Assembly (NCBI GenBank): GCA_039545335.1
Contig: BCIN01000003.1
Location: forward strand, 1,499,941-1,563,940
Length of the DNA: 64,000 nucleotides
Source: Kondoa subrosea
Taxonomy: Eukaryota
Direction: 5' to 3'
The first letter of the stretch is position 1. The number at the start of each line of letters is the position of its first letter. The position numbers were made by a program, and so were the translations under genes. This document shows, piece after piece, positions 13,124-39,400 of this stretch. The notes under the pieces were generated by a model. The model saw nothing but the letters and a program-made list of their open reading frames with translations. It ran no database searches and was not told the DNA's origin.

Positions 13124-14745
13124 ATGCTACGTATCATAGCGGCCATGCTCGCTCTATCTTTCGCCATGAGAGGCTATCTGCCAGCCATAGCAAGCAAAAC
13201 AATTCAAGGGAAAGGCGGTATCTACTCGTGTCATGGCATGACAGGCCCACATTACTATGACCACCACCATTCTCTTATGTTCTTCACCAGCATTGCACTG
13301 CTTACGCTCTTTTATGTGTCTGGCGGACTTGCAATCACTTACCCAATGCAAGTTTTNNNNNNNNNNNNNNNNNNNNNNNNNNNNNNNNNNNNNNNNNNNN
13401 NNNNNNNNNNNNNNNNNNNNNNNNNNNNNNNNNNNNNNNNNNNNNNNNNNNNNNNNCACCACCATTCTCTTATGTTCTTCACCAGCATTGCACTGCTTAC
13501 GCTCTTTTATGTGTCTGGCGGACTTGCAATCACTTACCCAATGCAAGTTTTGCATCGGAAACTGGGCCTGGAAATGTTATTGTCACTAGAGCAATACAAC
13601 TTCAAGACTGTTGCACAAGGGCAAAGAGAAGCGATGCGAATTTTGAAGTTATTGCGACAAGGTCAAGGTGTAAAAGCGGTTGTTTATTGGGTAGATAGAG
13701 CATGCGGGAGAGCCGAAGATGCAGCTGCCTCCGTTGAGGGCAACATCCGTGACAGATTGGTTCTGTCCGAAGAACCTGAACTATGCTTTGATGCCATTGA
13801 AATCGTGGCAGATACCTGCATCGACACTTTGTTAAACATGAAAATTGGGGACGTGAGCTGTTACAAGCCAAAGCAAATGCAACAGGTCGCTTCATTTGCT
13901 ATTCCCGGTTTCATTGGCAACATACTGTATCAACTCTTCTTTCTAAAGCATTTTCCTTCCGCCTTCACGAAACGGATGTTTCAGATTACTTTTCGCCTCT
14001 TTCAAGCACTGGTTCAATCACATCTGTACACAACTTTAGACTCCGACGATATTCACAACAGCTTCCAAATCTTGCTTATTGCTATTCATGGTCTGTACAC
14101 AGCAGATCCAGCAGCTTGCCAAGATGCCTGGGAGAGTCTTTCCACTTCTTGCAACAACGACTTCTTTCTTAAACTAGAAGCATACACCTGGCGCAAATAT
14201 CTTGCCAATAAATACCCAAAACCAGAGGATCAAGATTATTTTGGTCTACATTATCGGGTTGTTGTCGCACAAATGTTGGGAATGCAACCAGCCGATTGTT
14301 CTACCCGCTTTTCAGGATATTCGGGCTGCTACAAGCAGGTTTTATCAATTCAAGATCCGGTAGAAAGATGCGCTTTATTTGAGCGGATCAAGTTCGGTCT
14401 AGGTCAAAGGAGCGGTAAGCAGGTAGAATGCTTACATTTGGCATATCGGGCAGGCCCGCATGCGATCTCTGTCTGTTGTTATTGCGGTAAATCGGAGACT
14501 GTTAAGGAGGGATCTTGGAAGGTCAAGCGCTACAATCCCTGCGCCCATTGCATTGCTGTTACATATTGCAGTTAGTGCACGCCAGGGTAAGGCTCAGTGC
14601 AGTACTCATAGATTCTGCTACAGGCAAAGCTTGCGCAAAGAATGGTACGCTCTTTATTTTCGTTTTAGGTCTGATGTGAACGACTCACCGGGGAACAGAT
14701 CACCAAACTCATGCCCTGCGTTGCAGCAGAATCGCTCAGAAGTAA
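13124..14745 (+). CDS. MYND-type zinc-finger protein (start uncertain; spans an N gap)
   Basis: CCYCGK...PCAHCIAVTYCS|KACAKND|HQTHALRC after removing two short 3' introns gives a complete MYND pattern. Confidence 0.75.
13262..13551. other. 100-N assembly gap flanked by an exact 95-bp direct duplication
   Basis: 13262-13356 is identical to 13457-13551; Ns at 13357-13456. Confidence 0.95.
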
Positions 14746-33626: not shown

Positions 33627-36393
33627 ATGCCGCCCAAAACCAAGGATTCACCAGAGATCACTGCCTTAGCTAGTTCTTTTGAATCTTTTGGTCTTTCATC
33701 AGCCAAAGCTGTGGAAGTAGCTCGCAACACGAAACAAGCTACAGCTTTTAAGGAATACTTGTCCCTTGAATCAGAGCAATTGCAATCTAAAGCTGGCTCA
33801 CTCAATTCTAAGCAAGGCAACCTACTCTTCCAGCTTGCTACTAGTAATGAGACTTTGAGCGAAGAGGGCAGAGGATTGATTACAAAGGAAATATTGGATG
33901 AACGCTTGTTATCTGCAGATCAAGTCACAGGTCAGCTGGTTCTTCGCTGTAGCATCTTAAAGATGCTCAGGCTTCAGAATTGGCATGACAGAGGCTATCA
34001 AGTACTGCTCAAGTAATTCTGAGATCAAGCAAGATGAATTCGAGAAAGCTACTGGTATTGGCTACTCCATCACACCAGAAGAGATTCAAGCTATTGCTAG
34101 AGATTGGACAGGTCAACGTAAAGAAGAACTCGATCTAACTCGTTGGGCAGGAATAGGCAAAACTATGGGTGCTTTGAAATCAATCGCTTCTTTACGTTGG
34201 GCTGCTCCTTTGGATCTCAAGACTGCTACGGAAGCGGTTTATCTGGAAATCTTCGGTCCTAAAGAGGATAAAGCTACTTTGAAATCAAGGCAAAAGGTAG
34301 GTTTCTTCGATTGCTCTTTACCTTATGTAATGAGCGTGATCGCGGACTCTACAGGAAAAAGTTAAAGCTTCTAAACCTGAGGCATCCACTTCAACTCTCG
34401 CAGCAGCAAACTCAGCAGATTCTTTATCCGAAACCAAAATGTTTGAAGAAGGTTTCCTAGCTCGTTTACATAAACCAGGAGAAAACCCACAAGCTAATCC
34501 TGATCGAATGAAAGAACACTTATCTTTCACTCAAGGCAAAGTTTTCACTCGTTTCCCTCCTGAACCAAATGGTTATATGCATATCGGTCATCTGAAAGCT
34601 TTGGTTATCAATTTCGGTTTTGCCAAACATCATGGTGGTCATTGTTATTTACGTTATGATGATACGAATCCTGAAGCGGAGAAACAAGTTTATATTGATG
34701 CGATTTTGGAAAGTGTTAGATGGTTAGGATTCGACCCGTTTCAAGTCACTTTTGCTAGCGATCATTTTCAAAGATTGTTTGATTGTGCAAAAGAATTGAT
34801 CAAGAGAGGTTTGGCTTATGTGGATCATTCTACTGGTGAGTTCTACTTTCCCATCGCTCGTCGAGCTATCGGGTAAGGGTCGGACTTACAGCGGAGGAAA
34901 TGAAGATTCAAAGAGGTGGAGAAGAAAGAGGTCCTAGAGTTCCTTCGAAATGGAGGGACAGACCTATTTCGGAATCGTTGGAAGAATTTCAAGCTATGCA
35001 AGATGGAAAATATCAACCTGGACAAGCCGTTTTACGAATGAAGCAGAATTTGGAAGACCCAAATCCTCAAATGTGGGATCTGGTGGCATATCGAGTACTC
35101 AATACCCCTCATCATCGAACTGGTGATCAATGGAAAATATACCCTACATACGATTTCACGCATTGTTTGAACGATAGCTTCGAGAATATCAGGTTCGTCT
35201 AGGATTTGGCTATAAGCGAAGTGCATCGCTCAAGCCTAAGTCTCGATACGAACAGTCATTCACTTTGTACCGTCGAATTTATCTTATCTCGCCAATCATA
35301 CGAATGGCTCTGCGATGCATTAGACATGTATCGACCTCGTCAATCTGAATATGGTCGACTCAACTTGCAAGGTACAATAACATCGAAGCGGAAATTGAAG
35401 AAGCTCGTCGACGATCATCATGTCAAAGATTGGGATGATCCACGTCTCTATACTTTAGTCGCTCTTCGCAGACGTGGTGTTCCTCCTGGCGCTTTAAGAG
35501 CTTTCATCAACCAGCTCGGCGTATCTACAGCCCTTACAACTCTTCCTCTTGTCCGTCTCGACTCTACTATCCGTCAATACCTTGAAGTCCACACTCCTCG
35601 ACTGATGCTCGTTCTTGATCCCCTCAAAGTTACATTAGAAAACCTGCCAGAAGATTACGTAACGATGATCGAACGTCCCTGCCACCCAAAGAACCCAAAC
35701 ATGGGAACAACCTCTGTTCCTTTCACTCGAACAGTTTATATCGATCGATCTGATTTTCGGGAAGAAGATTCAGCAGATTATTTCCGTTTAGCACCTGGGA
35801 AATCAGTTGGTCTGCTATACAGCGAAAGACCAATCACATGCACATCTTTCAAGAAGAATGATCAAGGCGAAATTATCGAAGTGATTGCCAAATTCGAGAA
35901 CGAAGGACCGCTTTTCAAACCGAAAGCTTTCATCCAATGGGTCGCAGAACATAAACCTAGTGGAAGTCCAGTCATTGTTGACGAAGCGAGAATGTTCAAT
36001 CCACTCTTCAATACCGATAACCCAGCTCAAGCAGATGATTTCTTGGCTGATCTGAATCCAAACTCGTTACAAGTAGCAAAGAACGCGATGGTTGAGATCG
36101 GTATATGGGATGTAGCTACCCAAGGCCTGAAGGCGGCAAGAGAGGAAGCGAAAGAGCGCGAAACAATAGCCCAAAGCGATAAATCTGCCTCGACTCCAGC
36201 TATTCAGTCTTCAGATCTTGTTGGATTTGAATGCGTTCGCTTCCAGGGTCTCCGAACAGCCTACTTCTGCGTGGACAAGGATTCGAAGATCAAAGCGGTA
36301 GAAGAAGGGTCAGAGAAGGTGTATCACTCCGAGGTAGACAGACTGGTTCTCAACACTATTGTTGGATTGAAGGAGGATAGCTCGAAGAAATGA
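33627..36393 (+). CDS. GLN4: Glutaminyl-tRNA synthetase, multi-exon
   Basis: [76 protein letters not shown]. Confidence 0.97.
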
Positions 36394-36493: not shown

Positions 36494-39400
36494 TTACTTC
36501 AATTCATGCTCTTGCTCGCTGATCTCCAGGTTTTGAGCCGGATCAATGCTCATTTGTGCATCTGTAAAGCGCTCGGGATGGAACTCTCTCTTGACGAAGA
36601 TGGTGTATTCAGCACCAAAGAAGCGAGTGCGAATGTTGGCGATGACGAGGCGGAGAAGGAAGGCCGCCGCTGTCCAAAGTAAGCCGCCAACGGGACTGTA
36701 AGTGGTCCCAAGCAATTTCAGATCCAACGGATCATAGTGATCGCAATGACACTTACGCAGCAACGAAAGCGCCAAAGGTAGACCAGTCCGAGGCGTATAT
36801 GCCAGACTCAAGAATGAGAACACCTGCTGCTCGAGATGCATCGCCATTGTAATAGACCAAGCCGAAAAGGAAGACGGTGAACAGTCCTGTAAGTCATCGA
36901 GTCTCAACTGAGTGCTTGCACAAGAGATCCAATGGCTTACCTCCTAAACCACCAACAACCACATCAAAGCCGTTCATAAAGTACAAAGCTGGTACCAGAC
37001 CGAGCAAAATGGGTGGAAAGATGGCAGCCGAGACCAGATCGGAAATGAGGTAAAGAACCAGGATATCCTGTCATTGCTATCAGCGGACGATTCTCCAAGT
37101 ATCGGACATTTCGTACCAAGTTCAAGGTAGCCACAACAATAGCTGGAATGTTGACCAATAGGACCAGGCGAACCCACCAAAGATTGAGCTTGTTTCGGAA
37201 AACATCATTGCTGATTGAAGCGACAATGCCGCATTGCAGAGTATCGTAAGCTGCACAAGACATGCAGATGGCGAAGATGATACAGAAGCCAACCACCCAA
37301 GCTGGAAGTAAAGCGATGAGGTAGAAAAAGGCTGAAGAAGCTGCAACAGTATCGGCTGGATCGACAGCTCCTGACCACTGTATGTCGTGCATGGTCGTGA
37401 GCTAAGAGGTAGCTATCGACTACGTGCAACATACGACAGCGAGCATGCCCGTAATGCCAACCAAAACAAGGATGATAAAGACAAAAGCTGCTGCCAATGA
37501 GCATCCAACCCAAAGATCTAGGTACGTGTTAGTCAGCGCACATAGCTTGTGGCTGTGTGCAGGCGGACCTTTGTCGGTCTTCGAGGAGAAAGCTCGCTGC
37601 CAGAAACCAGTCAAGAAGTAATAGTTTGTTATGACCTGTCAGGTGGTCTTCAGACAGGACGCCAAGAACAATTACATGAAGTAGACTGACAGCAACAGGC
37701 AGGACTGAAAAGAGCATTAAGCTAGCACCTCAAGTAAGAATCATTGTCACATACTATATAATAGTTGCCATCCGAGCAAAGTACTGCCAGTCAGATTAGT
37801 CGAATTGACGATAGCTTGATCCTGTACACCACCATCAGAAAGAAGCTCAAAGACTAGGCGAAGTCTGTGGCGACGCACGATATTGACTTGAGTTCCCACA
37901 GCAATACTGCAAACGATGAGTAGGATGACAATCATGACTCCTTGAACATTGTCAGTAATGAGTGAAGTTCGGAAGCCACCAAGCGCTGCGAGTCAGAACC
38001 GGGTACCCATTAGCCTAAGTCAAAGCACCGTCTTTGCACTCACCAGTATAGATCAAAGTAACTATGACTTCTACGATCGTAGCGGCCAGACCACTCATTC
38101 CAGTTAGACCAGTGACGACGTAAGAGATCGAAGTGAGTTCAGAACACATGTAAATGAACTGTTCGCTTCACTTCAGCTTGATCAGTGGTACTGAGGGAAG
38201 TATCTTACGAGAGTCAAGACAGTGCATGCACCAACAAACAAAGCTGGAATGACGCCAAATCGCTCGCGAACATATTCAGTCAGAACGAAACCATGAGGAC
38301 AAGCTTTTCGGATCTTGCTAGCCAAATACGGGAAGGTCATAATGGGAATAGCTGAGGCGAACTGTCAGCATCGAGGCCTCACATCAATGCTAAATTGATT
38401 TCGCCTCTGTGTTCACTGACAGCGTATATAATGATTCCTTGAACTCCAGCAATGGTCCCAATTTGCGGATACTGACTATGCATCAGCAAAGTCCTAGCAG
38501 GAATAGCATGAACATACAGTGAACAGAATGCCAGAACCAAGACCTGGAAAAAGTCAAGTCAGTATGCTCAGTCAATTCTTACGAATAAAAGCGCCAGCGC
38601 GGAAAAAGCTTGTGGTAAAGCCAAACAAAGCATTTCGAAACATCGAAGTGGGATTTCCATTGCATCTCCTTTCCGCGCGAATTATCGCTTTCAAGTTCAA
38701 GCAGTTTTTCCTTTTTTGAATTAGGAAATCTCAGCCATTAGAGCAGGGATTTTGTTCCATTCCTTCTTCGCTAATCTCTGCTTGGCATTGCGCTGACATC
38801 CTTGATATGACTTCTCCTTTGTACAAGCATTAACCCTCTTCTCATCGACGAGAACGAGGAGGGTAGAACGCAAAAGCAGAAGTTATATCAAGGAAAGGCA
38901 AAAGAGAATTGTGAAGCAGAAAGGAAGCAAAGCCTCTCTATAGCACCCGCGATGCAAAGTGTCCATATATATTTCGATATTTCGCTTTGTGCAACTTGAC
39001 ACCAACTCTTTGAAGAAATTTCGACATACATTGATTTTGTGAGGATGAATGCAGTCTCTTAGCTCAAAGAGTTGTTTGTAGGTAAGGTAAAAGAGTGCTT
39101 CTGTGATTGTCCGCTCGAATTGTTCCGATCGCCAAATTTGGGTTTCCGTCAAACTTTCCGATAGTCATTGTGTAACTAACCAGAAGCAGCGAAATTGAGA
39201 GCCAAAGGGAAGGCTAGAATAACGGATTAGTAGCAGCCTGGGCCAGGAGGGCAGGACAGACCAGTCTGAGTACGAAGAGAGCTTAGATAATCTCCCTTGG
39301 AGTTCCGAAAACGCCAGCCAACAGCGAGACCGAAGATCAAGAAGACGCTGTAGGTAGTGTAGATGATGCCATTCGAGGCAGGTTCAGAAGGGAAACCCAT
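36494..39400 (-). CDS. Sodium:solute symporter, DUR31/NCU01977-type (probable thiamine transporter), multi-exon with one 637-nt intron
   Basis: MGFPSEPASNGIIYTTY..., YLSSLRTQT|AFPLALNFAAS|GLGSGILF, GGFRTSLITDNVQG, GFWQRAFSSKTD, CAAYDTLQ; carries an intronic TPP aptamer. Confidence 0.85.
38660..38957 (-). promoter_or_regulatory. Intronic TPP riboswitch aptamer with very long P3 arm
   Basis: RNA reads UUGCAUC(P1) GCGG GUG CUAUAGAG...~200 nt...CUCUAAUGG CUGAGA [hairpin] AA CUGC UUGAA CUUGAAAGCGAUAAUUCGCGCGGAAAGGA GAUGCAA(P1'). P1 is 7 bp, P2 is GCGG/CUGC, and the UGAGA and AUAAU signatures are present. Confidence 0.88.

Follow-up and report, generated by a model that had tools for sequence, protein, structure and literature searches.

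Why does a transporter gene whose other introns measure about 48-60 nucleotides (nt) contain one intron of 637 nt, and what does that intron hold? [quoted passage not shown] A first-pass annotation, made without database searches, had remarked that intron 2 is roughly ten times the usual length, which is borne out within the gene (one gap measures ~105-120 nt), and had read a thiamine pyrophosphate (TPP) riboswitch with a very long P3 arm into it. Covariance-model matching and comparison with homologues uphold this reading: a complete TPP aptamer with a very long P3 is present in the long internal intron of a DUR31/NCU01977-family SSS gene. Very probably, this is a genuine eukaryotic TPP riboswitch of the fungal DUR31/NCU01977-type class, which would act through long-range pairing within intron 2.

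The aptamer is complete from one strand of P1 to the other (Table 1). On the minus strand, UUGCAUC (38951-57) and GAUGCAA (38660-66) form a P1 of seven perfect pairs, P2 joins GCGG (38947-50) to CUGC (38701-04), and both CUGAGA (38729-34) and the AUAAU of the L5 loop (38681-85) are found where the annotation had placed them. The 3' two-thirds were aligned by the Rfam covariance model RF00059, and the 5' half was mapped by hand onto the model structure; the hand map gives P1 7 base pairs (bp), P2 4 bp plus U38945-A38707 over a 2-nt bulge, and the base of P3 the pair G38944-C38734 plus eight more. Every RF00059 pair is standard (32 of 32, counted over P1, P2, the P3 base, P3a, P4 and P5). The ligand-contact motifs are likewise intact, with GGGUGC and CUGAGA on one side and UAAU in L5 and GCG after P5 on the other. 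The pyrophosphate-sensor core, CUUGAAAGCGAUAAUUCGCGCG, has the same 22 nt as the consensus and keeps UAAU and GCG, and the spacing between G38692 and G38674 (18 nt) fits the G...G rule given in PMC5882874.

Folding calculations agree with this assignment. None of 100 dinucleotide shuffles of the 308-nt aptamer region folded as well as the natural sequence (z = -4.2), and enforcing the TPP fold costs 4.4 kcal/mol relative to the minimum free energy (MFE) structure (-94.3 versus -98.7 kcal/mol). The window contains a single exact copy of the 15-mer from the 5' half; with up to three mismatches allowed, the search was uninformative, as 1.35 matches are expected. The element shares with RF00059 the helices P1-P5 together with the optional P3a, the motifs CUGAGA, UAAU and GCG, and an identical core spacing, and it differs from the model in the length of P3 (209 nt versus ~11 consensus positions) and in its score, 30.6-35.5 bits where the gathering score is 54.3 bits.

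The annotation had anticipated that so long a P3 would defeat a standard search, and it does: Rfam returned no match at the gathering score anywhere in the 64-kb window, and the local match that a permissive scan recovered misaligns the 5' half. In that scan of 38400-39300 (901 nt), RF00059 matched 38650-38776 with 30.6 bits (E 6.9e-4); the 3' two-thirds of the alignment have high posterior probability, and for the 5' strands of P1 and P2 the model resorts to bases inside P3, with the resulting pairs flagged as non-standard. When 38640-38745 (106 nt) was searched alone, a 5'-truncated match to model positions 16-105 reached 35.5 bits (E = 4.9e-6). With ~11 consensus positions for an arm of 209 nt, RF00059 is unable to span P3, and the sub-threshold score is attributed to this insertion. 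The same behaviour is described for fungal riboswitches in a 2024 ACS Omega paper (PMC11683625), according to which RF00059 'often fails' once P3 exceeds ~60 nt and its matches end inside P3; the TPPsw-UREA group of that paper comprises the same gene class. At 209 nt within an aptamer of 298 nt, the P3 of the window exceeds both the fungal mean of ~150 nt and the example of 172 of 234 nt quoted there.

One part of the initial description did not survive this comparison. The aptamer had been called 'split'; it is an ordinary contiguous one, long P3 arms being described as the norm in fungi (PMC11683625), and it only looks split, to a reader or to the covariance model, because P3 is a 209-nt hairpin. 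Within this hairpin, the 17-position helix with one mismatch that had been pointed out (38878-94/38799-815) is present and appears in the MFE structure as 10 + 6 bp, and ACCCUC (38859-64) with GAGGGU (38833-38) forms part of the MFE structure as well. For the third proposed pairing, complementary words do exist, UCUGCUU in two copies (38914-20 and 38874-80) and AAGCAGA (38777-83), but they do not pair with each other in the MFE structure. Folded alone, the P3 arm reached z = -3.8, with none of 200 shuffles folding as well.

Relatives of the locus were found in metagenomes. A scan with the exon-1 peptide yielded four loci (L001-L004), three of which (L001, L002 and L003) end exon 2 with ...LNFIASG|GUGAGU in the same phase, so that the junction ...LNF(I/A)ASG|GU is common to them and the window. 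In L003, the following intron holds a TPP aptamer of 44.4 bits with a 93-nt P3, the 5' half of which the model aligned correctly. L002 carries a TPP aptamer of 40.9 bits with a P3 of 169 nt between the 5' half and CUGAGA; its 5' half is identical to that of L003 and is misaligned by the model in just the way seen for the window. Both scores lie under the gathering score. Between the window and L003, seven pairs, counted by hand from the alignments, are changed on both sides with pairing kept (two in P1, one in P2, one U-A/C-G pair at the junction, one in P4 and two in P5). The L001 contig ends ahead of the aptamer position. L004 was rejected as a relative, as only the first 21 query residues match and no TPP match was obtained at E <= 0.1. 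GC-rich sequence follows a fungal-looking first exon in L004 (L004:1290-2390), which is possibly a chimeric metagenome contig.

The gene context points to the same riboswitch class. The borders of intron 2 (GU at 39180, AG at 38544) are consistent with the tblastn alignment of a 552-aa Pleurotus homologue (P0008), which puts ...ALNFAASG ahead of the intron and LGSGILFT behind it. An exon query retrieved PF00474 (sodium:solute symporter) proteins from Pleurotus and Hohenbuehelia, as well as unnamed ones up to 89% identical, and the full Pleurotus protein retrieved 857 relatives at E <= 1e-20. Nearly all of the best 120 of these 857 are proteins of 500-570 aa that bear the name 'urea transporter' or a similar one; among their sources are Fusarium verticillioides, Parastagonospora nodorum, Thermothielavioides terrestris and Trichoderma, and these species or genera recur in the lists of 'urea transporter' genes with Type II riboswitches in Dataset S1 of PMC5882874 or Figure 4B of PMC3597705. 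Among the matches listed, the homologues, which come from Pleurotus, Hohenbuehelia and many ascomycetes, belong to PF00474 and measure ~520-560 aa, and the ascomycete ones are 49-56% identical to the Pleurotus homologue. Pfam searches with nine single-exon translations of the window gene gave no SSF match and one sub-threshold unrelated match; such short fragments are beyond the reach of Pfam, and the family assignment rests on the full-length homologues. On this sequence similarity, the gene is likely the orthologue of NCU01977/DUR31. Among the best 120 of 857, the named relatives that come next after Pleurotus and Hohenbuehelia are Wallemia and ascomycetes (48-55% identity), and further Agaricomycetes are nearly absent, so that the gene looks patchy across mushroom-forming fungi.

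The arrangement around intron 2 matches that of Neurospora crassa NCU01977, assigned to Type II by Mukherjee et al. 2018 (PMC5882874). [quoted passage not shown] They also share a predicted premature stop if the first 5' splice site is unused, here the UAG at 39176-39178. In N. crassa, a GC-rich element, alpha, located <60 nt past the first 5' splice site pairs in the absence of TPP with the 3' shoulder of P1 (alpha'), so that the complete 550-650 nt intron tends to be spliced out; binding of TPP sequesters alpha', internal 5' sites are then used, and stop codons stay in the transcript (PMC3597705, Li & Breaker 2013).

A second point of reference is DUR31 of Candida, the NCU01977 orthologue and a demonstrated thiamine transporter (Donovan et al. 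2018, PMC5997356). As described in that paper, the C. parapsilosis gene has its riboswitch in a 5'-proximal intron, as does the homologous gene of the window, and thiamine represses the productive spliced form, a response whose counterpart we would expect here. Unlike the window, however, C. parapsilosis DUR31 has a 351-nt intron and a short aptamer, which a 99-bp deletion removes, and the paper's discussion of the mechanism takes long-range pairing to be unlikely (PMC5997356). By analogy with the Neurospora and Candida work, the gene of the window would encode a thiamine transporter repressed by thiamine: its aptamer would bind TPP, thiamine would lower productive splicing, and thiamine would be the transported substrate.

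The two ends of intron 2 are extensively complementary. Nucleotides 1-100 of the intron pair with 38544-38680 at -57.5 kcal/mol, forming 75 bp, 11 of them G-U, in 18 helices (calculated with RNAduplex, which disregards competing intramolecular structure). As good a duplex was obtained with 1 of 300 shuffles of the 5' side and with none of 300 shuffles of the 3' side (shuffle means -35.5 and -36.5 kcal/mol, respectively). The duplex is co-linear and runs into the P4 and P1 3' strands of the aptamer. Moreover, six of its helices are part of the unconstrained MFE structure of the intron and are lost when the aptamer is enforced, their place being taken by local folding of the 5' region and by a candidate extension of P1 (P0, 38972-38997/38617-38648; -23.2 kcal/mol, 1 of 300 shuffles as good). 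This extension shares the strand 38617-38648 with the duplex and hence competes with it, so that the middle of the downstream strand has two mutually exclusive partners. In the predicted structures, this is the logic of an alpha-alpha' switch spread over a longer, weaker helix. GUAAGA, a 5'-splice-site-like word, is located in the downstream duplex strand (38577-38582, minus strand), 38 nt upstream of the 3' splice site.

As in NCU01977, then, the region past the first 5' splice site is complementary to a strand that includes the 3' shoulder of P1. The two systems differ in that the window has, in place of a short GC-rich alpha (RGCGGYRRY), ~75 interrupted and AU-rich pairs over ~100 nt, and in that the 3' end of P1 is 116 nt from the 3' splice site, compared with the <60 nt criterion for alpha'; the P3a-like hairpin of the window is a further difference. 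The nearest alpha-like word, AGCGGACAA at 39108-39116, fits six of the nine positions by eye. A canonical alpha-alpha' pair was considered for the window and rejected, as shuffled sequences pair equally well. Both L003 and L002 have a GC-rich alpha pair of 10-12 bp (GAAGCGGCAGCA/UGCUGCCGCUUC in L003; 10 bp with one bulge in L002). A conserved-looking internal 5' splice site, GUUCGU, occurs in the three relatives (L001:1390-1425, L002:3525-3560 and L003:1165-1200); the window lacks such a block and has GUAUGU at 39029 instead. The latter is enclosed by a perfect 12-bp stem, CAACUCUUUGAG/UUCAAAGAGUUG (39063-39074/39003-39014, minus strand), and its GU is paired (UGCAUU/AAUGUA) whether the fold is free or has the aptamer enforced.

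These complementarities suggest a mechanism in which long-range pairing governs splicing and thiamine represses it. While TPP is scarce, the ~95 nt at the start of the intron would pair with the ~105 nt that extend from the P4 and P1 3' strands towards the branch site, and this pairing would put the first 5' splice site beside the 3' splice site, allowing excision of the full intron and production of the transporter. When TPP is abundant, P1 of the aptamer would close, possibly extended by P0, and the inner half of the downstream strand would be withdrawn from the duplex. Splicing at the first site would then decrease, with either retention of the intron or use of an internal site such as GUAUGU at 39029, and the unspliced or internally spliced transcripts would stop at the UAG three bases into the intron.

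A further feature, which had gone unremarked in the first-pass annotation, is a hairpin between CUGAGA and the 3' strand of P2 (P2'). RF00059 aligns it to the optional P3a stem with high posterior probability. The 24-nt linker that contains it folds at -3.9 kcal/mol, a value reached by 6 of 2000 shuffles of the linker, whereas the same linker measures only 3-4 nt in L002 and L003, neither of which has a P3a. The hairpin is flanked by U38945, 5' of P3, and A38707, 3' of P3a, a combination that is one of two reported in PMC2258182 for riboswitches with a P3a. P3a is common in bacteria and has been seen in diatoms (PMC4260697, PMC9544697), and, as stated in a study of fungi, no P3a was known from eukaryotes at that time (PMC8786325). 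As described for bacterial, archaeal and diatom P3a (PMC2258182, PMC4260697, PMC9544697), the hairpin of the window sits at the junction between UGAGA and P2'; it differs from those in that its host is a fungus and in that the two metagenomic relatives lack it. None of the papers listed by full-text searches of the open-access literature reports P3a in a fungus. The hairpin is the most unusual feature of the locus and, being seen in one sequence, a possible variant feature.

Several results weigh against a riboswitch that works by long-range pairing, and they concern the aptamer as well as the expression platform. On the side of the aptamer, besides the lack of any match at the gathering score, a 42-nt piece around the 5' half gave no TPP match against Rfam, which we ascribe to a piece too short to score, and P4 and P5 have only three good pairs each. 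On the side of the platform, the window lacks the canonical alpha (RGCGGYRRY, located <60 nt from the splice site and forming at least 11 bp with the P1 3' shoulder), and pairing between the P1 3' region and the initial 151 nt of the intron is at the level of chance (equalled by 427 of 1000 and 267 of 500 shuffles). How significant the long duplex is varies with the choice of windows: when these were widened, 24 of 200 and 20 of 500 shuffles did as well, and the narrow windows for both the duplex and the P1 extension were set after the MFE structure was known. The duplex is AU-rich and broken into helices of 2-8 bp, the opposite strand gives -50.2 kcal/mol, a modest asymmetry between strands, and neither the duplex nor the P3a-like hairpin, each resting on a single sequence, has covariation support. 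The splice sites and the branch site have the same predicted accessibility in the free ensemble as in the one with the aptamer enforced. Finally, P1 and P0 together are far less stable than the duplex (-38 to -57 kcal/mol), so that switching would have to be kinetic and co-transcriptional.

In the leading alternative, the aptamer is real and regulation proceeds without long-range pairing. TPP would then act locally, as in the published Type III or Candida DUR31 riboswitches, for instance by altering how accessible the first 5' splice site is relative to an internal one, or the riboswitch would merely be needed for splicing, and the complementarity of the intron ends would be a constitutive 'zipper' of the sort that assists the splicing of any long intron. 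Zipper stems between intron ends are known in yeast, the window has the consensus-like internal GUAUGU that a local mechanism could use, and it lacks the canonical alpha-alpha'; furthermore, the mechanism of C. parapsilosis DUR31 is reported as unknown, with long-range pairing considered unlikely, in PMC5997356. However, a constitutive zipper sits poorly with a duplex that is co-linear into the P4 and P1 3' strands and disappears once the aptamer is enforced, intron 2 and its gene have the length and layout of the Type II class, and the internal GUAUGU is held in its local hairpin in both predicted states. We regard this alternative as rather unlikely. Far less probable is that the aptamer is a decaying relic without TPP binding or regulation in a constitutively spliced intron. 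The score under the Rfam threshold, the short P4 and P5, each with one non-standard pair in the model alignment, and an AU-rich P1 could be signs of decay, but all ligand-contact motifs and their spacing are intact, the 32 pairs are standard, and the seven differences from L003 are compensatory. The P3 insertion accounts for the low score; L003, whose P3 measures 93 nt and whose 5' half is aligned correctly, is sub-threshold too (44.4 bits).

Least probable, and highly so, is that P3 received the ~200-nt hairpin as an independent element with a function of its own, for instance a small-RNA precursor or a foldback transposon. The near-perfect 17-position inverted repeat and the folding stability of the arm (z = -3.8) would suit such an element, and the arm bears a weak resemblance to plant and animal miRNA precursors (18-20 bits, E 0.5-1.2). 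These scores are far under the thresholds of the miRNA models (96-107 bits), and the resemblance was dismissed as chance; likewise, an origin of the arm from a miniature inverted-repeat transposable element or another repeat was rejected, since no second copy of the arm exists within the 64-kb window. At this position, moreover, the relatives have P3 arms too (93 and 169 nt), long and variable P3 arms are normal in fungi, and truncation of P3 in N. crassa NCU01977 left TPP binding and regulation intact (PMC3597705). A TPP riboswitch of the DUR31/NCU01977-type class with an extended P3 thus remains the reading that we prefer.

As to its novelty, TPP riboswitches, their association with the DUR31/NCU01977 family and their control of splicing are already established. 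The transporter class has been recorded in Basidiomycota (PMC5882874, PMC5997356) and long P3 arms have been published, so that the kind is known and this copy adds a member with a P3 at the long end. Within Basidiomycota, of 17 Agaricomycete species considered from Dataset S1 of PMC5882874, 1 (Punctularia strigosozonata) has the class, as do Tilletiaria anomala and Malassezia globosa, and the survey of medically relevant fungi in PMC11683625 reports the UREA group from a single basidiomycete, Malassezia furfur. The locus, whose host was judged to be probably an Agaricomycete, may add to this sparse Agaricomycete record. For annotation, it would be another real riboswitch that is invisible at the Rfam threshold owing to a long P3, and its aptamer marks the host gene as a probable thiamine transporter.

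We also considered whether the locus represents a structurally distinct Agaricomycete version of the class, with the first fungal P3a (a P2-P3-P3a three-way junction), a 209-nt P3 and a ~75-bp end-to-end duplex that replaces alpha-alpha' and competes with the P1 extension. Taken as a whole, this proposal is tentative, possible rather than probable. If it were true, the class would have been systematically missed in mushroom-forming fungi. The P3a-like hairpin and the extended pairing of the intron ends, if supported, would modestly widen the known architecture of eukaryotic riboswitches and of splicing control by long-range RNA pairing. The coordinates of all features are collected in Table 1.

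Table 1. Features of the transporter gene and of its riboswitch intron, in window coordinates
Feature	Position	Strand	Basis
SSS-family DUR31-like 'urea transporter' gene with many short introns; ATG at 39400, 3' limit approximate	36560..39400	-	tblastn of P0008 and P0001
Exon 1 (MGFPSEPASN...LRTQT)	39262..39400	-	tblastn
Intron 1, 48 nt	39214-39261	-	sequence read against P0008 alignment
Exon 2, 33 nt (AFPLALNFAAS and first base of Gly)	39181..39213	-	sequence read against P0008 alignment
Intron 2, 637 nt, GUUAGU...CAG; holds riboswitch and expression platform	38544..39180	-	sequence, tblastn
Exon 3, 26 nt (..LGSGILFT)	38518..38543	-	sequence, tblastn
In-frame UAG directly after the Gly codon G|GU	39176..39178	-	read from sequence
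Long-range duplex, predicted 5' strand (alpha side), starting at the 5' splice site itself	39085..39180	-	predicted pairing
GUAUGU, consensus-like alternative 5' splice site within intron 2	39024..39029	-	motif; in local hairpin
Candidate P1 extension P0, 5' strand; pairs with 38617-38648	38972..38997	-	predicted pairing
Complete TPP aptamer, 298 nt, P1 5' strand to P1 3' strand	38660..38957	-	covariance model and hand mapping
P3, closing pair G38944-C38734 with 209 nt between; one long irregular hairpin	38734..38944	-	fold prediction
CUGAGA, J3-2 pyrimidine-sensor motif	38729..38734	-	
P3a-like hairpin UUUCCU/AGGAAA, 10-nt loop, between CUGAGA and P2'	38707..38728	-	RF00059 alignment and folding
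P4-P5-L5 pyrophosphate-sensor arm: CUU/AAG, GCG/CGC, loop AUAAUU, GCG	38669..38695	-	
Long-range duplex, predicted 3' strand (alpha' side), from P4 3' and P1 3' strands to 27 nt short of the 3' splice site	38571..38675	-	predicted pairing
Likely branch site UACUGAC, ~18 nt upstream of the 3' splice site	38558..38564	-	motif match only

Elsewhere in the window, the assembly has a gap of 100 N at 13357-13456. Just downstream of the transporter gene, on the opposite strand, a long open frame of 396 aa extends over 35203-36393 (+); by eye, we take it to resemble the C-terminal part of a glutaminyl/glutamyl-tRNA synthetase.

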